Origin: Escherichia coli
GTDB lineage: Bacteria; Pseudomonadota; Gammaproteobacteria; Enterobacterales; Enterobacteriaceae
DNA length: 64,000 nt
Strand: one strand, 5' to 3'
NCBI RefSeq assembly: GCF_030384885.1
Contig: NZ_CP128613.1
The notes beneath the pieces were generated by a model, which saw only the letters and a list, made by a program, of their open reading frames with translations, was not told the DNA's origin and did not search any database. Below are positions 9,447 to 35,015 of the stretch, piece after piece; the first letter of the stretch is position 1; each line of letters begins with the position of its first letter. The position numbers and the translations under genes were made by a program.

Positions 9447-10487
9447 TCATTTATCGGAAGACGCCTGCCACAGATTCAGCTCGCCATCGGCGATATGCTG
9501 ATCAATCTGCGCCAGCTCCTCGGTGCTAAATGTCAGATTATTCAGCGCCTGCACGTTCTCCTCAAGTTGCTCCGCGCGGCTGGCACCAATCAATACCGAC
9601 GTCACTCGCTCATCTTTCAGCAACCAGCTTAACGCCATTTGTGCCATTGATTGTCCACGCTGCTGTGCCATTTCATTCAATAACCGCAGGCTGTTGAGGT
9701 TGGCTTCGGTGAGCATTTTCGGCGTCAGGCCACGAACTTTATTCCCTTCACGATGCATCCGTGAATCTTGCGGAATACCGTTGAGATATTTTCCGGTCAG
9801 CAATCCCTGAGCCAGAGGAGTAAAGGCAATGCAGCCCACGCCGTTATGTTGCAGGGTATCCAGCAGGCCGCTTTTATCCACCCAGCGGTTCAGTAAATTG
9901 TATGAAGGTTGATGAATTAACAGCGGAATTTTCCATTCGTGCAGCAACTCGACCATTTTTTGCGTCCGCTCTGGCGAGTAAGAGGAGATCCCGACATAAA
10001 GCGCCTTACCGCTTTGTACCGCATGAGCCAGCGCAGAGGCGGTTTCTTCCATCGGCGTATTTTCATCGACGCGATGAGAGTAAAAGATATCGACATACTC
10101 CAGCCCCATACGCTTCAGGCTTTGGTCGAGGCTGGCGAGCATGTATTTACGTGAGCCGCCAGAGCCGTACGGGCCGGGCCACATATCGTAGCCAGCTTTG
10201 GTAGAGATAATCAGTTCATCGCGATAAGCGGCAAAATCCTCCCGCAGCAGGCGACCAAAGTTCTCTTCTGCGCTTCCTGGAGGCGGCCCGTAATTGTTGG
10301 CTAAATCAAAGTGCGTAATGCCCAAATCAAACGCTTTGCGCAGGATCGCACGCTGTGATTCCAGTGCGTTAACGTGACCGAAATTGTGCCATAAACCGAG
10401 CGATAACGCGGGCAGGCGTAAACCGCTTTTTCCGCAATAGCGGTATTGCATCTGCCCGTAACGTTCGGGATTCGCTAACCAGACCAT
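9447..10487 (-). CDS. gpr: L-glyceraldehyde 3-phosphate reductase (aldo-keto reductase)
   Basis: Track ORF 9447..10598; start trimmed to MVWLANPERYGQMQYRYCGKSG (346 aa); YghZ/Gpr. Confidence 0.9.
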   Translation of the reverse strand: MVWLANPERYGQMQYRYCGKSGLRLPALSLGLWHNFGHVNALESQRAILRKAFDLGITHFDLANNYGPPPGSAEENFGRLLREDFAAYRDELIISTKAGYDMWPGPYGSGGSRKYMLASLDQSLKRMGLEYVDIFYSHRVDENTPMEETASALAHAVQSGKALYVGISSYSPERTQKMVELLHEWKIPLLIHQPSYNLLNRWVDKSGLLDTLQHNGVGCIAFTPLAQGLLTGKYLNGIPQDSRMHREGNKVRGLTPKMLTEANLNSLRLLNEMAQQRGQSMAQMALSWLLKDERVTSVLIGASRAEQLEENVQALNNLTFSTEELAQIDQHIADGELNLWQASSDK

Positions 10488-10640
10488 GACCTCTCCTTTC
10501 CACCATTCAATTTCGAAACAATGTTTCCAGTTTAGCGATTTACCAGGGGGGATCCCGTAGCATCGCTCACAGTGTGACGAAAAACTGGGCAAAAACACGT
10601 GCTTATGCTTTGCTTAAAAAAACACCAATTGAGGAGTACA

Positions 10641-11531
10641 ATGATGCCGCGTCTGACCGCTAAAGATTTCCCACAAGAGTTGCTGGATTACTACGACTAT
10701 TACGCTCACGGGAAAATTTCGAAACGTGAGTTCCTCAACCTTGCGGCGAAGTATGCGGTGGGCGGGATGACGGCATTAGCGTTGTTTGATTTGCTCAAGC
10801 CAAATTATGCGCTGGCGACTCAGGTAGAGTTTACCGACCCGGAAATTGTTGCTGAGTACATCACGTATTCTTCGCCAAATGGTCACGGCGAGGTACGGGG
10901 TTATCTGGTGAAGCCCGCAAAGATGAGCGGCAAAACGCCAGCTGTGGTGGTGGTGCATGAGAATCGTGGACTGAATCCGTATATCGAAGATGTGGCACGG
11001 CGAGTAGCGAAGGCGGGGTATATCGCCCTGGCACCTGACGGCTTAAGTTCCGTTGGAGGTTATCCGGGTAATGATGATAAAGGTCGTGAGCTGCAACAGC
11101 AGGTTGATCCAACCAAACTGATGAATGATTTCTTTGCCGCAATTGAGTTTATGCAACGCTATCCGCAAGCGACAGGCAAAGTGGGTATTACCGGATTTTG
11201 CTATGGCGGTGGTGTATCGAACGCGGCGGCTGTCGCGTATCCGGAACTGGCCTGCGCGGTGCCGTTTTATGGTCGTCAGGCACCCACTGCCGATGTGGCG
11301 AAGATTGAAGCGCCTTTACTGCTCCACTACGCGGAACTGGATACCCGAATCAACGAGGGCTGGCCCGCTTACGAGGCGGCGTTGAAAGCCAATAATAAGG
11401 TCTATGAGGCGTATATCTATCCGGGGGTTAATCACGGATTCCATAATGATTCCACGCCCCGTTATGACAAATCTGCCGCCGATCTTGCCTGGCAAAGGAC
11501 GCTGAAATGGTTCGATAAATATCTCTCCTGA
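10641..11531 (+). CDS. yghX: dienelactone hydrolase family protein, uninterrupted reading frame
   Basis: Track ORF 10599..11531; ATG at 10641 preceded by gaggag RBS; MMPRLTAKDFPQELLDYYDYYAHG...; 296 aa with no frameshift. Confidence 0.8.
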   Translation: MMPRLTAKDFPQELLDYYDYYAHGKISKREFLNLAAKYAVGGMTALALFDLLKPNYALATQVEFTDPEIVAEYITYSSPNGHGEVRGYLVKPAKMSGKTPAVVVVHENRGLNPYIEDVARRVAKAGYIALAPDGLSSVGGYPGNDDKGRELQQQVDPTKLMNDFFAAIEFMQRYPQATGKVGITGFCYGGGVSNAAAVAYPELACAVPFYGRQAPTADVAKIEAPLLLHYAELDTRINEGWPAYEAALKANNKVYEAYIYPGVNHGFHNDSTPRYDKSAADLAWQRTLKWFDKYLS

Positions 11532-11649
11532 TAGGTTTATCTCTTACGGGATTACGTCTTAAACAAGCATGAAAAAATAGCGTGCGCAAAAGTCGTTCTT
11601 TGCCTAAAATATCGCTATATATGACAATATATAGCGAATGAGGTGAACG

Positions 11650-25173: not shown

Positions 25174-25932
25174 ATGGATGCACTACAAACACAAACTGTT
25201 AATAGTACAACCGCGCCGCAGCCCAACTACATTCCGGGGCTGATTGCGGTGGTCGGGTGTGATGGCACCGGTAAATCCACACTGACCACTGACCTGGTGA
25301 AATCGCTGCAACAACACTGGCAAACCGAGCGCCGCTATCTGGGGCTGCTCTCCGGCGAAGACGGCGACAAAATCAAACGGTTGCCGCTCGTTGGCGTCTG
25401 GCTGGAACGGCGACTGGCGGCCAAATCCTCGAAAACCCAAAGCATGAAAACCAAATCTCCGGCGCTATGGGCGGCGGTGATTATGTACTGCTTCTCGCTG
25501 CGAAGAATGGTGAATCTACGCAAGGTTCAGCGACTGGCGCAAAGTGGCGTTCTGGTGGTCAGCGATCGCTTCCCGCAGGCTGAAATTTCGGGCTTTTATT
25601 ATGACGGACCGGGGATTGGCGTCGAGCGTGCGACCGGGAAAATCAGCATGTTTCTGGCACAGCGCGAACGGCGTTTATACCAAAAAATGGCGCAATACCG
25701 TCCTGAATTAATTATTCGTTTGGGGATTGATATTGATACTGCCATCTCCCGCAAGCCTGACCATGACTATGCCGAGCTGCAGGACAAAATCGGTGTCATG
25801 TCGACGATTGGCTATAACGGCACAAAAATTCTTGAGATTGATTCCAGAGCGCCCTACAGCGAAGTGCTGGAACAGGCACAGAAGGCGGTTTCTCTGGTTG
25901 CAATCGTTTCTGACCGCCGAAGTTTAACTTAA
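25174..25932 (+). CDS. yghR: P-loop NTPase (Walker A VGCDGTGKST), YghR/S/T paralog family
   Basis: Track ORF 252 aa MDALQTQTVNSTTAPQPNYIPGLIAVVGCDGTGKST... Confidence 0.88.
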   Translation: MDALQTQTVNSTTAPQPNYIPGLIAVVGCDGTGKSTLTTDLVKSLQQHWQTERRYLGLLSGEDGDKIKRLPLVGVWLERRLAAKSSKTQSMKTKSPALWAAVIMYCFSLRRMVNLRKVQRLAQSGVLVVSDRFPQAEISGFYYDGPGIGVERATGKISMFLAQRERRLYQKMAQYRPELIIRLGIDIDTAISRKPDHDYAELQDKIGVMSTIGYNGTKILEIDSRAPYSEVLEQAQKAVSLVAIVSDRRSLT

Positions 25933-25977
25933 GGTTGGCGGGATACTTTTTACTATCAACGATAAGGTCAGGCTGAA

Positions 25978-27327
25978 TTGGCGGGGTTTAACATCAAACA
26001 TTGGTTTGCAGATGGCGCGTTTCGCACCATTATTCGCAATAGCGCCTGGTTAGGCTCCAGTAATGTCGTGAGCGCTTTGCTGGGTCTGTTGGCGCTCTCG
26101 TGTGCCGGTAAAGGGATGACGCCCGCCATGTTTGGCGTACTGGTGATTGTGCAATCGTACGCCAAGTCGATCAGCGATTTTATTAAGTTTCAGACATGGC
26201 AGCTGGTGGTTCAGTACGGAACGCCAGCCTTGACCAATAATAATCCGCAGCAATTTCGCAATGTCGTCTCATTTTCCTTCTCGTTGGATATCGTCAGCGG
26301 CGCGGTGGCGATTGTCGGCGGCATTGCCTTACTCCCTTTTCTTTCCCATTCATTAGGTCTGGATGACCAAAGCTTTTGGCTGGCAGCGCTGTATTGCACG
26401 CTCATTCCTTCAATGGCTTCCTCCACACCGACCGGCATTCTGCGTGCGGTAGATCGCTTCGATTTGATTGCTGTACAGCAGGCGACGAAACCTTTTCTGC
26501 GCGCAGCGGGGAGCGTCGTAGCCTGGTATTTTGATTTTGGTTTTGCGGGTTTTGTTATTGCCTGGTACGCATCGAATCTGGTTGGCGGCACCATGTACTG
26601 GTGGTTTGCCGCGCGCGAATTACGCCGCAGAAATATCCATAACGCCTTCAAATTGAATCTGTTTGAGTCTGCCCGACACATTAAAGGCGCGTGGAGTTTT
26701 GTCTGGTCAACCAACATTGCCCACTCCATCTGGTCGGCACGTAACTCGTGCAGCACAGTGTTGGTGGGGATCGTGTTAGGACCCGCTGCCGCCGGGTTAT
26801 TTAAAATCGCCATGACATTCTTCGATGCCGCCGGAACGCCAGCGGGTTTACTGGGCAAAAGTTTTTACCCAGAGGTAATGCGTTTAGATCCGCGTACCAC
26901 CAGACCGTGGTTGTTAGGCGTGAAGTCCGGTTTACTGGCGGGCGGAATCGGTATTCTGGTGGCGCTCGCGGTGTTGATCGTCGGCAAGCCGCTCATTTCG
27001 CTGGTGTTTGGCGTTAAGTATCTCGAAGCGTATGACCTGATTCAGGTAATGCTTGGCGCAATTGTGATTTCGATGCTGGGCTTCCCACAGGAGTCATTGC
27101 TATTGATGGCGGGAAAACAGCGCGCTTTTCTCGTGGCGCAAACCATCGCCTCAATCGGCTACATCGTATTGCTGTTCATGTTCTGTCATCTGTTTGGCGT
27201 GCTGGGGGCTGCATTTGCTTACTTCGGTGGGCAATGTCTGGATGTGGTGCTCTCGTTAATTCCAACCTTAAAGGCATTTTTTCAGCGCCATTCCTTGCTT
27301 TATAACGCAGCCGGAGAGAAATCCTGA
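25978..27327 (+). CDS. yghQ: polytopic inner membrane protein, MOP/Wzx-type flippase-like; start codon uncertain (first ATG in frame at 26116)
   Basis: Track ORF 449 aa (non-ATG start at 25978); many hydrophobic helices; stop overlaps next gene start (TGATG). Confidence 0.8.
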   Translation: MAGFNIKHWFADGAFRTIIRNSAWLGSSNVVSALLGLLALSCAGKGMTPAMFGVLVIVQSYAKSISDFIKFQTWQLVVQYGTPALTNNNPQQFRNVVSFSFSLDIVSGAVAIVGGIALLPFLSHSLGLDDQSFWLAALYCTLIPSMASSTPTGILRAVDRFDLIAVQQATKPFLRAAGSVVAWYFDFGFAGFVIAWYASNLVGGTMYWWFAARELRRRNIHNAFKLNLFESARHIKGAWSFVWSTNIAHSIWSARNSCSTVLVGIVLGPAAAGLFKIAMTFFDAAGTPAGLLGKSFYPEVMRLDPRTTRPWLLGVKSGLLAGGIGILVALAVLIVGKPLISLVFGVKYLEAYDLIQVMLGAIVISMLGFPQESLLLMAGKQRAFLVAQTIASIGYIVLLFMFCHLFGVLGAAFAYFGGQCLDVVLSLIPTLKAFFQRHSLLYNAAGEKS

Positions 27328-28151
27328 TGATGAGAAAATATTTCCCGCTTGAGGCGAGCGAGCGTCTATTTATTGCAGTTGAAGAAGATGATGTCGTTGA
27401 TGCGCAGGTCAGTTTACCGCCGACTATCGCAACAGGTTGTACCACCGAAATCATTCATGATAATTACGCGTTATGCCTGCAATTCTGGCTGAATGGCGTT
27501 GATCGTCAGGAATTACTGCGTTTAATCCACAAACAAGCCAAAGGCGAGGGGCTTACGGCTGACGAGCGTAAACAGTTTAAATATATGCGGGCGCGTTATA
27601 AGCATCTGCGTTTCGCTCAGCGACTGTATCTGAAAAAACACAAGGCAGGATTTTTATTCGGCAAAACGACGGTATGTCTGGGCCATTTTCAGGATGGTTT
27701 CCGTAACGGTAAAAAAAATATTGTGTCGTATTACGGCAACCTGTTACGGATTTATTTAAGCTCTCCGGTCTGGTCGTTGGTGAACTATTCATTACGCCAT
27801 AGCCAGTTAGAAAGCGTAAGCGGTTTTATTGCCTATCGGCAAAAGCAAATGCATACCCTGAAAGAGATAATTGCCAAACCGCGACTAACCGGCAGGGAAT
27901 TTCATGATGTGCGAAAAATCATCAGCCAGCAGGTTTCTTATTACGACACCCTAAGATCGCTTGATCCTGAAAAAAAAGAAGCGTTACAGATTTCCCGCTT
28001 CCTCGCCGCCATTAATGGCCTGATGGGGGATAAACACGACGACATGGTGGCGGATGATATGGAAAACCGCCAGTCGTATGATGCACCGATGGCGCTGGAT
28101 AGCGATATTCGTCAGCGCTTAGAACTGCTGATTTCGCGTTTTCCGCTATAA
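27327..28151 (+). CDS. hypothetical soluble protein, no recognisable motif
   Basis: Track ORF 274 aa MMRKYFPLEASERLFIAVEEDD...; start overlaps yghQ stop; codon usage protein-like. Confidence 0.6.
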   Translation: MMRKYFPLEASERLFIAVEEDDVVDAQVSLPPTIATGCTTEIIHDNYALCLQFWLNGVDRQELLRLIHKQAKGEGLTADERKQFKYMRARYKHLRFAQRLYLKKHKAGFLFGKTTVCLGHFQDGFRNGKKNIVSYYGNLLRIYLSSPVWSLVNYSLRHSQLESVSGFIAYRQKQMHTLKEIIAKPRLTGREFHDVRKIISQQVSYYDTLRSLDPEKKEALQISRFLAAINGLMGDKHDDMVADDMENRQSYDAPMALDSDIRQRLELLISRFPL

Positions 28152-28159
28152 CCGGAGCA

Positions 28160-28723
28160 ATGATGTCATCTCGTTTGATTATTGCGCTGATTATCATGCT
28201 CTTAGCCCCGGGTGTGCAGGCACACAATTTCGTCACGGGTAAAACGGTTACCCCTGTTTATATCCAGGAAGGCGGCGAGCTGCTTCTGAATAGCGACGAC
28301 GAAATTCACTACCAAAAGTGGAACAGCACACAGCTGGCGGGAAAAGTCCGCATTATTCAGTATATCGCCGGGCGTAAGTCGGCGAAGAAAAAGAACTCAC
28401 TGTTAATTAAAGCGGTTGAAGCGGCAAACTTTCCGCAGGATCGTTTTCAGCCCACCACCATTGTGAACACCGATGATGCCATCTTTGGTACTGGCTATTT
28501 TGTCGTTGGCAAAATCGAAAAAAATAAACGCCGCTATCCGTGGGCGCAATTCGTTATTGACGGCAATGGACAGGGACGCGTTGCCTGGCGGTTGCCGGAG
28601 CAGAGTTCAACCATTCTGGTGCTGAATAAAGCCGGGCAAATTCAGTGGGCAAAGGACGGCAGCCTGACGCCGGAAGAGGTAGATCATGTCATTGCGCTGG
28701 CGCAGAAGCTGATCAATGAATAA
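28160..28723 (+). CDS. YtfJ-family periplasmic protein (paralog of core ytfJ), signal peptide MMSSRLIIALIIMLLAPGVQA
   Basis: Track ORF 187 aa; collinear similarity to remembered E. coli YtfJ (shared stretches VVQYIAGR.., TTIVNTDDAI, YPW.QFV.D, WAKDG.LTPEEV). Confidence 0.75.
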   Translation: MMSSRLIIALIIMLLAPGVQAHNFVTGKTVTPVYIQEGGELLLNSDDEIHYQKWNSTQLAGKVRIIQYIAGRKSAKKKNSLLIKAVEAANFPQDRFQPTTIVNTDDAIFGTGYFVVGKIEKNKRRYPWAQFVIDGNGQGRVAWRLPEQSSTILVLNKAGQIQWAKDGSLTPEEVDHVIALAQKLINE

Positions 28724-28752
28724 AAATTCAAAGGATTGAGGGCGTTAGTGAG

Positions 28753-29823
28753 ATGAAGCTGGTTGAACACTACATCATGCGTGGTACTCGCCGTCTGGTG
28801 CTGATTATCGTCGGTTTTCTGATCTTTATTTTCGCCAGCTACTCCGCACAGCGTTATCTGACCGAAGCGGCAAATGGGACATTAGCTCTTGATGTTGTGC
28901 TGGATATTGTTTTCTACAAGGTGCTGATTGCACTGGAGATGTTGTTACCTGTTGGACTGTATGTGTCAGTTGGCGTGACGCTAGGGCAGATGTATACCGA
29001 CTCGGAAATTACCGCTATTTCTGCGGCGGGGGGGAGTCCGGGACGCTTGTACAAAGCCGTTCTTTATCTGGCGATACCGCTAAGTATTTTTGTCACCCTT
29101 CTGTCGATGTATGGTCGTCCGTGGGCTTATGCGCAGATTTATCAACTGGAGCAACAGTCGCAGTCGGAGCTGGATGTTCGCCAGTTGCGGGCAAAGAAAT
29201 TTAACACTAACGATAACGGACGAATGATCCTTTCGCAGACGGTTGATCAGGATAATAATCGCCTGACTGACGTGCTGATTTATACTTCTACTGCCAATCG
29301 AACCCGTATTTTCCGCGCCCGTTCGGTTGATGTAGTTGACCCATCACCCGAGAAACCGACCGTTATGTTGCATAACGGGACCGCCTATCTTCTCGATCAT
29401 CAGGGACGTGACGACAACGAACAGATCTACCGTAATCTGCAATTGCATCTGAATCCGCTGGATCAAAGCCCTAACGTCAAACGCAAAGCAAAATCGGTCA
29501 CGGAGCTGGCGCGCTCCGCCTTTCCTGCCGATCATGCCGAACTGCAATGGCGACAAAGCCGTGGCCTGACAGCATTGTTGATGGCGCTGCTGGCCATTTC
29601 ATTAAGTCGGGTAAAACCGCGGCAAGGGCGATTTTCAACGTTATTGCCACTGACGTTGCTGTTTGTTGCCATTTTTTATGGCGGCGACGTCTGCCGTACG
29701 CTGGTGGCTAACGGCGCGATTCCCCTCATTCCTGGTTTGTGGTTAGTACCCGGACTCATGCTAATGGGCCTGCTGATGCTGGTCGCACGCGACTTCTCTT
29801 TGCTGCAGAAATTTTCCCGATGA
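28753..29823 (+). CDS. LptF-like permease (YjgP/YjgQ family), paralog of core lptF
   Basis: Track ORF 356 aa; N-terminal TM bundle, conserved YTDSEITAISAAG segment resembling LptF LYTESEITVMHACG, large periplasmic insert, C-terminal TMs. Confidence 0.8.
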   Translation: MKLVEHYIMRGTRRLVLIIVGFLIFIFASYSAQRYLTEAANGTLALDVVLDIVFYKVLIALEMLLPVGLYVSVGVTLGQMYTDSEITAISAAGGSPGRLYKAVLYLAIPLSIFVTLLSMYGRPWAYAQIYQLEQQSQSELDVRQLRAKKFNTNDNGRMILSQTVDQDNNRLTDVLIYTSTANRTRIFRARSVDVVDPSPEKPTVMLHNGTAYLLDHQGRDDNEQIYRNLQLHLNPLDQSPNVKRKAKSVTELARSAFPADHAELQWRQSRGLTALLMALLAISLSRVKPRQGRFSTLLPLTLLFVAIFYGGDVCRTLVANGAIPLIPGLWLVPGLMLMGLLMLVARDFSLLQKFSR

Positions 29824-30899
29824 ATGTTTTCAGTCGCTATTTAATCCGTCATCTCTTTCTCGGTTTTGCCGCCGCCGCAGGGCTATTGCTGCCGCTTTTT
29901 ACTACCTTCAACCTGATTAACGAACTGGATGATGTCAGCCCGGGTGGTTATCGCTGGACTCAGGCGGTGCTGGTGGTGCTGATGACCTTACCGCGCACAC
30001 TGGTCGAACTTTCGCCGTTTATCGCCTTATTGGGGGGGATTGTCGGCTTGGGGCAGTTATCGAAAAACAGTGAGCTTACCGCCATTCGCAGCACGGGGTT
30101 TTCTATCTTCCGTATTGCACTGGTGGCGCTGGTTGCCGGGATATTGTGGACTGTTTCATTAGGCGCGATAGATGAGTGGGTGGCGTCGCCATTGCAGCAA
30201 CAGGCGCTGCAAATCAAATCGACTGCCACTGCGTTGGGGGAGGACGATGACATTACCGGCAATATGCTGTGGGCCAGGCGTGGTAATGAATTTGTGACGG
30301 TGAAATCGCTGAACGAGCAGGGCCAGCCGGTGGGCGTGGAGATATTTCATTACCGCGACGATCTCTCGCTCGAATCCTACATTTATGCACGCAGTGCCAC
30401 CATTGAAGACGACAAAACGTGGATCCTGCATGGTGTGAATCATAAAAAATGGCTGAATGGCAAAGAAACGCTGGAAACATCTGATAATCTTGCCTGGCAA
30501 TCGGCCTTCACCAGTATGAATCTTGAAGAGTTATCGATGCCGGGAAATACTTTTTCTGTCCGTCAACTTAATCATTACATCCATTATTTGCAGGAAACCG
30601 GGCAACCCAGCAGCGAATACCGCCTTGCACTGTGGGAAAAACTGGGACAACCCATCTTGACCCTGGCGATGATTTTGCTGGCTGTGCCGTTTACCTTTAG
30701 TGCCCCGCGTTCGCCTGGGATGGGTAGCCGTCTCGCTGTAGGCGTCATCGTGGGCTTACTCACCTGGATCAGCTATCAAATCATGGTCAATCTGGGATTG
30801 CTATTTGCGTTGAGCGCACCTGTTACCGCGCTCGGTTTACCGATAGCGTTTATGCTGGTGGCGTTGAGCCTGGTGTATTGGTATGACAGTCAACATTAA
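29820..30899 (+). CDS. LptG-like permease (YjgP/YjgQ family), paralog of core lptG
   Basis: Track ORF 29739..30899; start trimmed to MNVFSRYLIRHLFLGF (359 aa), ATGA overlap with upstream permease; segment NSELTAIRSTGFS resembles LptG. Confidence 0.8.
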   Translation: MNVFSRYLIRHLFLGFAAAAGLLLPLFTTFNLINELDDVSPGGYRWTQAVLVVLMTLPRTLVELSPFIALLGGIVGLGQLSKNSELTAIRSTGFSIFRIALVALVAGILWTVSLGAIDEWVASPLQQQALQIKSTATALGEDDDITGNMLWARRGNEFVTVKSLNEQGQPVGVEIFHYRDDLSLESYIYARSATIEDDKTWILHGVNHKKWLNGKETLETSDNLAWQSAFTSMNLEELSMPGNTFSVRQLNHYIHYLQETGQPSSEYRLALWEKLGQPILTLAMILLAVPFTFSAPRSPGMGSRLAVGVIVGLLTWISYQIMVNLGLLFALSAPVTALGLPIAFMLVALSLVYWYDSQH

Positions 30900-30933
30900 A
30901 CCCGCCGTGGCGCAGCACCACAGCGGGCTCACA

Positions 30934-32106
30934 TTACTGCTTCAGAGTAGCAAATGCCTGAATGATGGCATCGATTTGCTCACGAGTGTGGGCAGCGTTT
31001 ACGCTACAGCGCAGCAGCGTGATGCCTGCAGGCGCGGCAGGTGGCAGGATAAGATTCACATAAACGCCCAGCGAAATAAGCTCGCGCCAGATGCGTAAAC
31101 CTTCCTCTTTCGAACCGATTATCACTGGCACTACCGGGCTAATATGTGAACTTAACTCGTAACCCAGTTTTTGCAGACCGTCATACAGATGGTTGGCGTT
31201 ATCCATCAGCTTTTGCCGCAACTCTGGTTGTGAGGCAATGGTTCTTAACGACGAGCGCACGGTCGCAATGCAGGACGGAGAAGGAGAGGCGGTAAAAATA
31301 TACGGGCGGCTGCCGTAGCGCAGCACTTCCATCGCTTCCGAACCGACAGCAAAACCGCCAATCGAGGCCAGACTTTTACTGAAAGTACCAACGATAATAT
31401 CCACATCATCTTCAACGCCAACGGCTTCAGCCAGTCCGCGCCCCGTTGCGCCTAACACGCCAAACGAATGCGCTTCATCGACAATCAAATAACCACCGAG
31501 ACGACGTTTGATATCAACAATTTCCGCCAGCGGCGCAATGTCACCGAGCATACTGTAGATGCCTTCAACGATGATAATCGCCTCTTTTGCCCGTTCACCG
31601 AGGCGAACCATGCGCCGTTCCAGATCTTTAGCATCGTTATGGCGGAAACGAATAATTTCCGCTCCACCGAGAGAACAGGCGTCATAAATACTGGCGTGGC
31701 TGTCGGCATCCAGTAACACTACGGCGTTATGGTCGGCAAGTGCGCTGATGACACCTAAATTAGCGGTATAACCGGTTGAAAAAACGATAGCGGTAGGGCG
31801 ATTGAAAAACTCGGCAATTTCTTTCTCTAACGCCAGATGTGGCGCATAGCTGCCATTAGCCATACGAGAACCGGTAGTGCCGGTGCCTTGGGCCGCTAAC
31901 GCTGCCTGACCTTCGGCGATGGCATCATGATTGAAGGTTAAACCGAGATAATTATTGGTCCCGGCCAGGATCACGTTTTTATCGCCGATCCGGCCTTCGG
32001 TGGCGGAATACACTTCATCAATACAGGTACCAAACGGCGTTAACCCGTTGTCACTAAATTGCAGTCGCTCGCCAGCAAGGCGCGCATATTTATCGTATAG
32101 CCCCAT
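30934..32106 (-). CDS. PLP-dependent alpha-oxoamine synthase, serine palmitoyltransferase-like (third AOS paralog besides bioF and kbl)
   Basis: Track ORF 390 aa; PLP-lysine motif IVGTFSKSLASIGG, DEAHSFG motif, glycine-rich GTGTTGSR segment; TAATG overlap with upstream ACP. Confidence 0.85.
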   Translation of the reverse strand: MGLYDKYARLAGERLQFSDNGLTPFGTCIDEVYSATEGRIGDKNVILAGTNNYLGLTFNHDAIAEGQAALAAQGTGTTGSRMANGSYAPHLALEKEIAEFFNRPTAIVFSTGYTANLGVISALADHNAVVLLDADSHASIYDACSLGGAEIIRFRHNDAKDLERRMVRLGERAKEAIIIVEGIYSMLGDIAPLAEIVDIKRRLGGYLIVDEAHSFGVLGATGRGLAEAVGVEDDVDIIVGTFSKSLASIGGFAVGSEAMEVLRYGSRPYIFTASPSPSCIATVRSSLRTIASQPELRQKLMDNANHLYDGLQKLGYELSSHISPVVPVIIGSKEEGLRIWRELISLGVYVNLILPPAAPAGITLLRCSVNAAHTREQIDAIIQAFATLKQ

Positions 32107-32354
32107 TATTTATTCTCCAGCCATGGAAGTAGAGTTTCCATTAATTGCGCAGGGGTTTTGACATCCAGCAGAATATTAATAGGAATGGAAATATCGAATC
32201 TGTCTTCCAGCATCATTAAGAGATCCATCACTTTGATCGACTCCAGGCCAAGATCGTTGACGAGATCGCTGTCGGGCTTAATTTCCACACCGTTTTCGAC
32301 CAAATCCTGTAAACAGGAAAGGATGTAATCCATTACTATTTCACGATTTACCAT
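32106..32354 (-). CDS. acyl carrier protein (dedicated), candidate phosphopantetheine site in DLGLESIKVMDL
   Basis: Track ORF 82 aa; acidic four-helix ACP-like sequence; position between reductase and AOS. Confidence 0.7.
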   Translation of the reverse strand: MVNREIVMDYILSCLQDLVENGVEIKPDSDLVNDLGLESIKVMDLLMMLEDRFDISIPINILLDVKTPAQLMETLLPWLENK

Positions 32355-32385
32355 AGAAACGTTAACACACCTTTAAACAAGACAA

Positions 32386-33300
32386 TCAAAATAGCCCGTT
32401 GCGTAATGCGTGTTCCAGGCTAATCCCGGGAAACCAATTAATATCTTCAGAAATACGGTTATTACTTGCTGACCAGTCGGTGTGGGTTAATTCACGGATT
32501 TTCGAGCGGGTCAGCATAGGTTCTTTACCTGCCAGGCGACTCAACGCGGTACTGATATCCGCAAGGCAGGTGAGTACCGACAGAGGAATACCAACCATTC
32601 GAACGGAACCGCAACGGGCGTCGGCGGCAAGTTGCTGTACGCGTTGCCAGTCATAGCCGCCGGCGACGCCATCGCATAATTCATAGGTTTGCGTCTGTAC
32701 AGTTTCGGCGCTTAACCACTGCCCCACGGCTTGCGCGAAATCGGTGACGTGCAGGAAAGAGAGCTGTGTATCTGGCGCACCAAGTCGTGGCAGCAGGCCG
32801 CGCAGCATCCAGTCAAACAGCGGTTTTAACTCTTTATCGCCGGGACCATACACGGCTGTCGGGCGAAAAATGCCCAGCGTAATTTCGTCAGCCATTGCGG
32901 TCAGTCGTTGTTCGGCGACGTGTTTGGAATTTGCGTACCAGGAGAGTTCGGGATGGCGCGCCGCCAGCGAAGAGATAAACAGAAAACGTTGGCAAAAGCC
33001 GCTCTCTTTTGCCGCTTGCATCAGGCGCAGGCTGCCGTCAACGTTACAGCGGGTAAAAATCTCTTCTTTGTGTCCGCGCACTTGCCCGGCGCAATGGACC
33101 ACCGCGCTGGCTCCGGCAACCAGTTCGCTAAGCGAATGTGTATCTTCCAGCGAACCGCGCACCCAGATGAGATTATCATTGACGTGAGCGCGGGCAGTAC
33201 GCGTCAATGCGCGAACGTGAAAGCCGCGGGCGAGCAGGTTATCGATAATATATTTACCGATAAACCCGGTAGCGCCCGTCACCGCGACAGTTTGATTCAT
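32386..33300 (-). CDS. NAD(P)-dependent reductase of the epimerase/dehydratase SDR type (candidate 3-keto-sphinganine/ceramide reductase)
   Basis: Track ORF 304 aa; N-terminal VAVTGATGFIGKY Rossmann motif, YANSK (YxxxK); ATGA overlap with upstream FAAL. Confidence 0.8.
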   Translation of the reverse strand: MNQTVAVTGATGFIGKYIIDNLLARGFHVRALTRTARAHVNDNLIWVRGSLEDTHSLSELVAGASAVVHCAGQVRGHKEEIFTRCNVDGSLRLMQAAKESGFCQRFLFISSLAARHPELSWYANSKHVAEQRLTAMADEITLGIFRPTAVYGPGDKELKPLFDWMLRGLLPRLGAPDTQLSFLHVTDFAQAVGQWLSAETVQTQTYELCDGVAGGYDWQRVQQLAADARCGSVRMVGIPLSVLTCLADISTALSRLAGKEPMLTRSKIRELTHTDWSASNNRISEDINWFPGISLEHALRNGLF

Positions 33301-35015
33301 GCCATTGATTCCTGCACATGAAGGCTTGCAGCATAACGTTTTTTCGCTTCCGCACGGGCAGGCTTGCCGGAGGACGTTCGGGGAATACTGTGGGGCGGCA
33401 ACAGATCGATAGCCGCTGTTACGCCAAATTCGCTTTGGATCCGTGCTGCCAGTGCGTGGATAAGCTGCCCACGACGTTCTTCGTCGCTGATCCTACACTG
33501 GATCTGCAAAATGATTTTTTCCTGGGCGGTAACAAAAGCAATCGCATCGCCAGAATGAATTTCCGGTTCCTGTTCCGCAATATATTCAATATCCTGCGGC
33601 CAGATATTACGGCCACGAATAATAATCAGATCTTTAATGCGCCCGGTGACATACAGATAACCGTCCAGCAGATAACCGAGGTCGCCGGTATCTAACCAGC
33701 CCGTCGCGGCAATCTCGTCTTGCGAAACCTGGTCGCCAAAGTAACCGCTCATCAGGCTGGGGCCGGAGATGCAAATATGGCCTACCACACGTTCCGCGAC
33801 TGGCATACCTGCTTCATTGCGGATTTCAATGCCATGTTCCGGCAACGCTTTACCGCAGTTGACGAAAGTCGATACGGCGCGTGTTTCAGCACCCGGCGTG
33901 ACGGCTTTGCCCTGATATTCAAGAATGTCGCGATCCACTTCGTTAACCACAACCCCGGAGGCTTCATCAGAGAAGCTGACAGCCAGCGCATTTTCTGCCA
34001 GTCCGTAGCACGGCATGAAAGTTTTATCGTCAAAGTTAACCTGACGGAAACATTCAGCGAATTGATGGAGTTGTTCTGCGGAGATCGGCTCAGCACCAAT
34101 ACCAGCAACGCGCCAGCAGGAAAGATCCAGTTCAGCGAGATCTTTTTCATTCACGCGGCGCTGGCACAATTCATAGCCAAACGGCGGCGCAACGGAAACG
34201 GTGCCGCGATTTTTACTGATCAATTTAAGCCATTGCAGAGGACGCATGGCAAAATCCTGAGTGCGCAAATAATCTACTGAGAGCTGCGTGGCGACGGGGG
34301 TCAGGAGAAAGCCGACCAGTCCCATATCATGGTAGAAAGGCAGCCAGGAGACGCAGCGGTCGCCAGGGCGTAATTTAATGCCATCGTGGCTTATAGCACG
34401 TAGATTAGCCATCACTTCGCGATGGGTGATAATGACGCCACGGGGAAAACGGGTGCTGCCGGAGGTGTACTGGAGGTAGGCGATATCGTTCGGAACTGGA
34501 CGCTGGAGTACAACATCGGCTTCCGGTAATGCCTTAAACCAGGCGTGGCTTAAAACATGTAATTCGGGGTTGTTATGCGTAGCAGCATTGACCAGTGGCA
34601 ACCACTCATCACCAGTGATAATGGCTGCGGGCTGGCAACTTGCCAGTAGACCCTGCAGTTTGGCGCTCCAGGAATCCCGCTGACCGACGCCCATTGGAAT
34701 TGCCAACGGGACGGCGACTAAGCCGGCATACTGGCAGGCAAAAAAAGCCTCTACAAACCCGCTACTCGTTTCGGCAATCAGCGCCACGCGATCGCCTTTT
34801 TTCAGATTCAGTGATAACAACCGCTTCGCACCAGCTTCGGCACGCGCTTTTAACGTCTGATATTCCAGTTGATCTTCAAGTTGGCAACGTCTGTCATAAA
34901 AATTCATTCCGGCGCTACTCAGAGCGGCGTAGTCCAAAGCATCAACCAGCGTTGGAAAATCGGCATAGCGCATAGGTAGGGAATGCGTAAAGATGTTATT
35001 AGACATATACACCAC
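33297..35015 (-). CDS. fatty acyl-AMP ligase / acyl-ACP synthetase (adenylate-forming); start at GTG 35015 or ATG ~35006
   Basis: Track ORF 572 aa; AMP-binding signature YTSGSTRFPRGV, second motif TGDLGY; first gene of the minus-strand operon. Confidence 0.85.
   Translation of the reverse strand: MVYMSNNIFTHSLPMRYADFPTLVDALDYAALSSAGMNFYDRRCQLEDQLEYQTLKARAEAGAKRLLSLNLKKGDRVALIAETSSGFVEAFFACQYAGLVAVPLAIPMGVGQRDSWSAKLQGLLASCQPAAIITGDEWLPLVNAATHNNPELHVLSHAWFKALPEADVVLQRPVPNDIAYLQYTSGSTRFPRGVIITHREVMANLRAISHDGIKLRPGDRCVSWLPFYHDMGLVGFLLTPVATQLSVDYLRTQDFAMRPLQWLKLISKNRGTVSVAPPFGYELCQRRVNEKDLAELDLSCWRVAGIGAEPISAEQLHQFAECFRQVNFDDKTFMPCYGLAENALAVSFSDEASGVVVNEVDRDILEYQGKAVTPGAETRAVSTFVNCGKALPEHGIEIRNEAGMPVAERVVGHICISGPSLMSGYFGDQVSQDEIAATGWLDTGDLGYLLDGYLYVTGRIKDLIIIRGRNIWPQDIEYIAEQEPEIHSGDAIAFVTAQEKIILQIQCRISDEERRGQLIHALAARIQSEFGVTAAIDLLPPHSIPRTSSGKPARAEAKKRYAASLHVQESMA

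Follow-up and report, generated by a model that had tools for sequence, protein, structure and literature searches.

An uninterrupted yghX allele in Escherichia coli encoding a YghX-family protein of the dienelactone-hydrolase fold with a conserved N-terminal leader

The window analyzed here, a stretch of 64,000 nucleotides of Escherichia coli DNA, very probably carries the intact ancestral form of yghX, whose 295 codons specify the precursor of an enzyme of the YghX family, with the alpha/beta fold of dienelactone hydrolases (DLHs). Two small deletions have cost K-12 and roughly a quarter of the sequenced E. coli this gene. The YghX protein, the K-12 pseudogene and a crystal structure are already in public databases, and the intact form is already known and unsurprising. 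An intact yghX matters little beyond bookkeeping: the K-12 reference represents a derived, broken state at this locus, and the present strain, like most E. coli, retains a strongly conserved Cys-hydrolase.

The yghX reading frame and its K-12 counterpart

The features of the locus to which the following text refers are listed below.

10631-10636, plus strand: Shine-Dalgarno sequence GAGGAG, conserved in K-12 and located 7 nt ahead of ATG 10644 (4 nt ahead of ATG 10641)
10644-11531, plus strand: yghX coding sequence, 295 codons plus TGA (ORF list, RefSeq CDS of strain 2013C-4282, NF041440, PF01738)
10752-10753, plus strand: TA dinucleotide in codon 37, kept here and missing in K-12 (-2 frameshift; alignments and allele probes)
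10869-10871, plus strand: Ser76 (TCT); K-12 has CCT (Pro) at this codon, and the 80 related sequences all have Pro
11113-11114, plus strand: CC in codon 157, a single C in K-12 (-1, original frame restored; alignments and allele probes)

A plus-strand frame without interruption was found in both the ORF list and the sequence, running from ATG 10641 to TGA 11529-11531 (296 codons). An earlier reading of the window made from the letters alone (hereafter the sequence-only reading) had described this single frame correctly, as well as the good ribosome-binding site that precedes it. The mechanical ORF of the region reaches back to GTG 10599 (310 aa). The open frame claimed in that reading was confirmed, but not its start at 10641: the yghX start is likely the second ATG, at 10644, as judged from the conserved N terminus of the relatives, in which M-x-R-[LM]-T-A-K-D-F opens every related sequence covering the start, and from the RefSeq annotation of strain 2013C-4282, whose CDS maps to 10644-11531 (295 aa, WP_001360974.1, “YghX family hydrolase”). 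The 2013C-4282 sequence was 100% identical to the window over 10541-11631, and within the first 29 kb of the window the two differed at only four positions. Bases 10641-10646 read ATGATG in the window and ACGATG in K-12 and BL21, and the in-frame ATG at 10641 is an extra codon that results from this base difference.

Profile searches indicated that the yghX frame is a real gene and not a chance ORF. The translated sequence matched all 292 positions of the NCBIfam model NF041440 (YghX family hydrolase), scoring 586.3 bits (E=9e-177), more than the curated cutoff of 460 bits. Residues 85-295 likewise covered all 217 positions of the Pfam model PF01738 (dienelactone hydrolase) with 164.6 bits and E=3e-48, where the gathering score is 21 bits. 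The protein of 295 aa aligned without insertions or deletions to that of BL21 and to the related sequences of other species. Compared with the E. coli YghX hydrolase represented by WP_001360974.1, NF041440 and the PDB entry 4ZV9, with which it has the synteny gpr, yghX, yghW, hybO in common, nothing of substance differed; the window protein has Ser76 and Tyr229 against the usual Pro76 and Phe229.

In the MG1655 annotation, yghX is listed as a pseudogene (b4658) whose 5' end holds a distinct gene of 47 codons, yqhI (b4755), and in a RefSeq K-12 derivative yghX is flagged “frameshifted”. The sequence-only reading had described K-12 yghX as a frameshifted pseudogene and had suggested an alignment to locate the lesion. 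The pseudogene and the frameshifting were both corroborated, but a single frameshift was not, since the alignment revealed two deletions and no base-for-base match. The K-12 locus (b4658/b4755) shares its position, start codon and Shine-Dalgarno sequence with the window yghX, whereas it lacks TA 10752-10753 and one C of 11113-11114, both of which are present in the window; besides these two deletions, 19 base substitutions were found over 888 nt. Codons 1-36 of K-12 yghX are in frame, codons 37-157 are out of frame, and the frame is regained afterwards. Translation from the native start in K-12 ends at 47 aa (36 native and 11 out-of-frame residues), and the product, MPRL...LAAKCGRRDDGISVV, is exactly YqhI (window equivalent, 10644-10784). 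We also considered the second K-12 deletion as a rescue of the first and rejected this idea, because stop codons lie between the two in the shifted frame. K-12 and related genomes carry a derived pseudogene that arose through a 2-bp and then a 1-bp deletion, with the 47-aa YqhI as its translated remnant.

YqhI has been detected in K-12 by chromosomal epitope tagging, with the same start codon as yghX (PMC6001520), and ribosome profiling and RNA-seq have shown that it is induced by Mg2+ limitation independently of PhoQP (PMC11429745). The latter preprint contains no mention of yghX or of pseudogenes in connection with YqhI, and in the former yghX_2 appears merely as a flanking gene of yqhI, with no description of a yghX remnant. 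We observed that the tagged and low-Mg2+-induced YqhI of K-12 corresponds to an orphaned remnant of the YghX leader, although neither of the two papers calls it a remnant of yghX; this K-12 small protein is best regarded as a stump of YghX that is still translated. The translation and induction of YqhI in K-12 support, by analogy, an active promoter and ribosome-binding site ahead of the window yghX. The K-12 locus also serves as a “neutral” integration site, e.g., in W3110; the same site is a live, conserved gene in BL21 and most natural isolates.

Allele states, ancestry and selective constraint

The state of both deletion sites was counted with short indel-centered probes by megablast against 5,426 complete E. 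coli genomes. Because of the 28-base exact word of megablast, each probe matches only genomes of its own indel state, and the counts are lower bounds for each haplotype and blind to other lesions. At site 1 (TA 10752-10753), 3,783 genomes were undeleted and 1,505 carried the K-12 deletion; at site 2 (CC 11113-11114), the corresponding numbers were 4,221 and 1,199. Approximately 70% of the complete genomes were undeleted at both sites, and the -2 lesion was present in at least 28%. The intact yghX is the majority state in E. coli and not something special to this strain. The site counts (3,783 + 306 + 132 = 4,221) agree with a nested order in which the -2 deletion came first and some of the genomes carrying it later acquired the -1 deletion, and a genome with the -2 deletion only, that of AVS0750, was confirmed. 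The frequency of broken alleles in nature is probably lower than counted, since RefSeq is enriched for K-12 laboratory derivatives.

Other changes were seen as well. BL21 yghX is intact, strain 0H15 has an extra in-frame GTG in the GTGGTGGTGGTG run at approximately 10943 (a GTG repeat, codons 100-104), giving a protein of 296 aa, and public data hold several other independent truncated YghX fragments of 87-88 aa. The 0H15 insertion and the independent truncations suggest that yghX has been hit repeatedly in E. coli.

Relatives were collected from a scan of one genome per GTDB species, in which 588 related stretches were found; the best 80 were analyzed and, together with the window YghX, make up the set of 81 sequences used below. 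These best 80 of 588 loci, all from other GTDB species, were uninterrupted over the matched 293-295 residues and 74-98% identical to the window protein; they came from Citrobacter, Enterobacter, Klebsiella, Erwinia, Serratia, Pseudomonas, Rhizobium, Brucella, Paracoccus and others, so that among the best 80 the family is kept at this level of identity across Enterobacteriaceae, Pseudomonas and alphaproteobacteria. The dN/dS values of yghX were 0.03 against K-12, 0.06 against BL21 and 0.02 against Citrobacter. Taken together, the uninterrupted relatives and the dN/dS range of 0.02-0.06 indicate that the intact allele is ancestral and constrained and that the family is under strong purifying selection. 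When read in the original frame, the out-of-frame segment of K-12 differed from the window by six synonymous changes and one nonsynonymous change, indicating that the inactivation is recent.

In a separate observation, the window yghX region proved to be a rare haplotype, with a dS of approximately 0.09 to both K-12 and BL21; the locus 10541-11631 was matched at 99% identity or more in only 18 of 5,425 matching E. coli genomes, most of which showed 95-99%.

Two alternatives bear on the view that a functional ancestral allele has been retained here, as the sequence-only reading supposed. It is extremely improbable that the K-12 state is the original one or a sequencing artifact and the window frame a secondary “repair”. 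The K-12 deletions total -3, which is a superficial hint of compensation, and nothing else was found that speaks for a repair; against it, the frame is continuous in the best 80 loci from other species, and the shifted segment of K-12 contains stops in frame 0 while its original frame is still open. An artifact, for its part, is contradicted by the 1,199-1,505 independent complete genomes that carry the K-12 deletions. The ancestral part of the earlier claim was accordingly upheld by the relatives and the dN/dS values, while “functional” carries a caveat in Ser76, as an open frame by itself is no proof of YghX activity.

The second alternative is that Pro76Ser impairs the window protein; the allele would then not be a functional one that has been retained but a cryptic pseudogene at an early stage. 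Such an impairment would be consistent with the presence of Pro76 in 80 of the 81 sequences (in the context Y-P-S-P in the relatives) and of Ser in the window only, with the confinement of the Ser76 allele to 76 of 5,426 E. coli genomes, and with the repeated loss of yghX in this species. We nevertheless regard it as improbable, because Ser76 is one conservative change that lies outside the catalytic residues; in the ClcD alignment it falls near Gln9/Ser10, where the first strand begins. Apart from Tyr229, the residue found in most of the family (72 of 81 sequences; most E. coli have Phe229), the allele otherwise diverges only synonymously, and the Ser76 allele persists in its 76 genomes in varied hosts.

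Catalytic domain and N-terminal leader

The closest solved structure was PDB 4ZV9, with approximately 98% identity (four differences) over residues 59-294 (E=8e-160). This entry, the mature domain of the E. coli protein, was deposited as “uncharacterized” and without a publication; it has since been described with a triad in which Cys replaces Ser (PMC11878206), and a 2026 preprint, in which the protein is named EcoDLH, reported its purification and found no phosphotriesterase activity. In this respect EcoDLH differs from many DLHs, which show that activity as a promiscuous one. The active-site residues were mapped by a phmmer alignment to 4U2C, with ClcD numbering, and their invariance was assessed over the 81 sequences, as follows.

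10959-10961, plus strand: Glu106 (GAG) in V-H-E-N-R-G, aligned with ClcD Glu36, invariant in 81 of 81
11199-11201, plus strand: Cys186 (TGC), nucleophile in G-F-C-Y-G-G, aligned with ClcD Cys123, invariant in 81 of 81
11340-11342, plus strand: Asp233 (GAT), triad acid, aligned with ClcD Asp171, invariant in 81 of 81
11433-11435, plus strand: His264 (CAC), triad base in N-H-G-F-H, aligned with ClcD His202, invariant in 81 of 81

The triad Cys186-His264-Asp233 of a dienelactone hydrolase, with Glu106, was thus found at the ClcD positions. The sequence-only reading had proposed a check of a Ser-Asp-His triad; His264 and Asp233 are conserved, but the nucleophile is Cys186, and the G-x-S-x-G motif of classical serine hydrolases was not found in the YghX elbow, in which Cys is invariant in the 81 sequences. 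A check of Cys186, His264 and Asp233 should therefore replace the one for Ser. ClcD of Pseudomonas knackmussii (PDB 1DIN and 4U2C; EC 3.1.1.45) shares the alpha/beta-hydrolase DLH fold with YghX, and its Cys-His-Asp triad and Cys-gating Glu all have aligned counterparts in YghX; the two proteins are distant (E about 5e-15), and ClcD, of 236 aa, is cytoplasmic and has no N-terminal leader, whereas YghX has one of 58 residues. Chlorocatechol pathway genes were absent among the conserved yghX neighbors recovered, and nothing ties E. coli yghX to that pathway. As judged from the family, YghX would hydrolyze an ester, lactone or thioester bond via a Cys-acyl intermediate: Cys186 would attack the carbonyl, His264/Asp233 would act as the general base, and Glu106 would control the conformation of the Cys as in ClcD.

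The leader that precedes this domain is encoded as follows.

10644-10817, plus strand: N-terminal 58 codons, a candidate cleavable export signal of the Tat type (KR variant), assigned from motif positions

In the YghX leader, a conserved segment of residues 1-25 is followed by S-K-R-E-F-L (codons 26-31; 10719-10736), a Gly/Ala/Thr/Leu-rich hydrophobic stretch and Y-A-L-A (codons 55-58; 10806-10817). The motif [KR]-R-x-F-[LVI] was present in 81 of 81 sequences, as RR in 21 and KR in 60, and could be extended to [S/T/N]-[K/R]-R-x-F-L at residues 26-31. Four residues (R28, F30, Y55 and A58) did not vary at all, L31 and A56 varied very little, and position 27 was occupied by K or R. The leader closes with P-x-Y-A-x-A, and in 76 of the 81 sequences residue 58 is the last of A-x-A; position 59 is variable and is followed by Q-V-x-F-T-D-P, and the 4ZV9 chain aligns from residue 59 of YghX. 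An uncharged stretch with a subsequent A-x-A, which are features of Tat-exported proteins, was found in the window protein, with A-L-A at residues 56-58 and 12 uncharged residues; the median length of the stretch was 15 in the KR forms and 25 in the RR forms. The 21 RR-type orthologues, from Pseudomonas, Thalassospira and Rhodoferax, have the canonical RR with 17-28 uncharged residues, and a more distant homologue has S-S-R-R-D-V-L.

With moderate confidence, we interpret the leader as a naturally occurring KR variant of a Tat-type signal; residues 1-58 would direct YghX to the periplasm via Tat and be cleaved off behind A-L-A58. For comparison, natural KR variants exist among Tat signal peptides, e.g., in Salmonella TtrB. 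YghX and KR-variant Tat signals are alike in [S/T/N]-[K/R]-R-x-F-L, in a moderately hydrophobic, Gly/Thr/Ala-rich stretch and in A-x-A; YghX differs from them in that the segment ahead of the motif is unusually long (25 aa) and highly conserved, and in that no profile match was obtained. Specifically, when the 70-residue N termini of E. coli YghX and three RR-type orthologues were scanned with Pfam and NCBIfam at E values up to 10, no Tat-signal profile matched and only the YqhI-like and YghX models did, so that the case for export is one of motif positions. A literature search for “dienelactone hydrolase” with “Tat substrate” returned no papers.

A Tat signal cleaved after Ala58 has to be weighed against the possibility, which we consider less probable yet worth attention, that YghX is functional and its leader is a structural or regulatory module or an uncleaved anchor, with the protein in the cytoplasm or at the inner membrane. 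The segment of residues 1-25 (10644-10718) had a mean column identity of 86% over the 81 sequences and was as conserved as the catalytic domain, and AlphaFold2 predicted three N-terminal helices with a pLDDT of about 80-88 for residues 11-50; such conservation and such confident helices are unusual for a disposable signal peptide. The failure of the Tat-signal HMMs to match, the KR in place of RR in the enterics and the uncharged run of only 12 residues point in the same direction. On the other side, the invariant and nearly invariant positions are precisely the ones by which a Tat motif and a signal-peptidase site are recognized, the 21 orthologues show the canonical RR and the longer uncharged stretches, and the 4ZV9 chain aligns from residue 59, indicating that the domain folds without the leader. 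When the 58-aa leader alone was used as a database query, only short fragments (102 aa or less) and partial DLH proteins were retrieved, with no other domain context, which also argues against a structural module. The idea that the YghX leader also stands before other enzyme families was not borne out, as this query gave only truncated sequences of the DLH type; it also brought to light additional truncated yghX alleles of independent origin.

Tentatively, the leader may be more than a generic signal and have a dedicated partner, e.g., a Tat proofreading chaperone, or a regulatory role, with YqhI as an orphaned leader; a partner or a role of this kind would fit the finding that residues 1-25 are as conserved as the enzyme. 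Their consensus, x-R-L-T-A-K-D-F-x-x-x-L-L-x-x-Y-D-x-Y-x-H-G, was shared by alpha- and gammaproteobacteria. A proofreading chaperone, if there is one, would serve an apparently cofactor-less cysteine hydrolase, and if YqhI is the leader of YghX, data on YqhI would report on the regulation of yghX. The Pfam family PF23678 (“YqhI-like”) covers residues 2-37 of YghX; it takes its name from the K-12 stump, and what it describes, we note, is the leader at the N terminus of YghX-family proteins.

Flanking genes and other observations in the window

The gene upstream of yghX is as follows.

9447-10487, minus strand: gpr (L-glyceraldehyde 3-phosphate reductase), the divergent neighbor, which shares a 156-bp intergenic region with yghX

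An orthologue of gpr (82-91% identity) adjoins yghX on the opposite strand in 20 related loci, all of the enterobacterial type. The Pseudomonas yghX loci have aldo-keto reductases that are paralogues of gpr with approximately 25% identity, in a different arrangement. A conserved partner that would hint at a substrate was looked for, and only gpr was kept next to yghX, in 20 of 79 related loci, which gave no functional lead. In a promoter scan of the gpr-yghX intergenic region, the sole plus-strand match overlapped the start codon, and matches were no more common than in shuffled sequences, so that none was taken as a promoter.

Between yghX and yghW, an AT-rich palindrome with 11-bp arms was noticed at 11612-11637, TCGCTATATAT-GACA-ATATATAGCGA. 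It lies a few bases before the ribosome-binding site of yghW, and a terminator scan flagged it solely on the minus strand; it may act as an operator or form an RNA hairpin.

Further along the window, an lptF-like paralogue at 28753-29823 (plus strand) is an intact ORF of 356 aa with a G7 run at about 29028-29034. Its counterpart in 2013C-4282 has G6 and the RefSeq flag “frameshifted”; the G7/G6 difference may reflect a sequencing error at the homopolymer in either strain, or phase-type variation. This gene belongs to the region from yghS to yghO (25174-35005), which, as annotated in the near-identical 2013C-4282, is a cluster resembling one for LPS biosynthesis. The cluster comprises YtfJ, paralogues of lptF and lptG, a serine palmitoyltransferase (spt), an acyl carrier protein, an epimerase and a fatty acyl-AMP ligase, and it looks like a biosynthesis island of the sphingolipid or lipid type.
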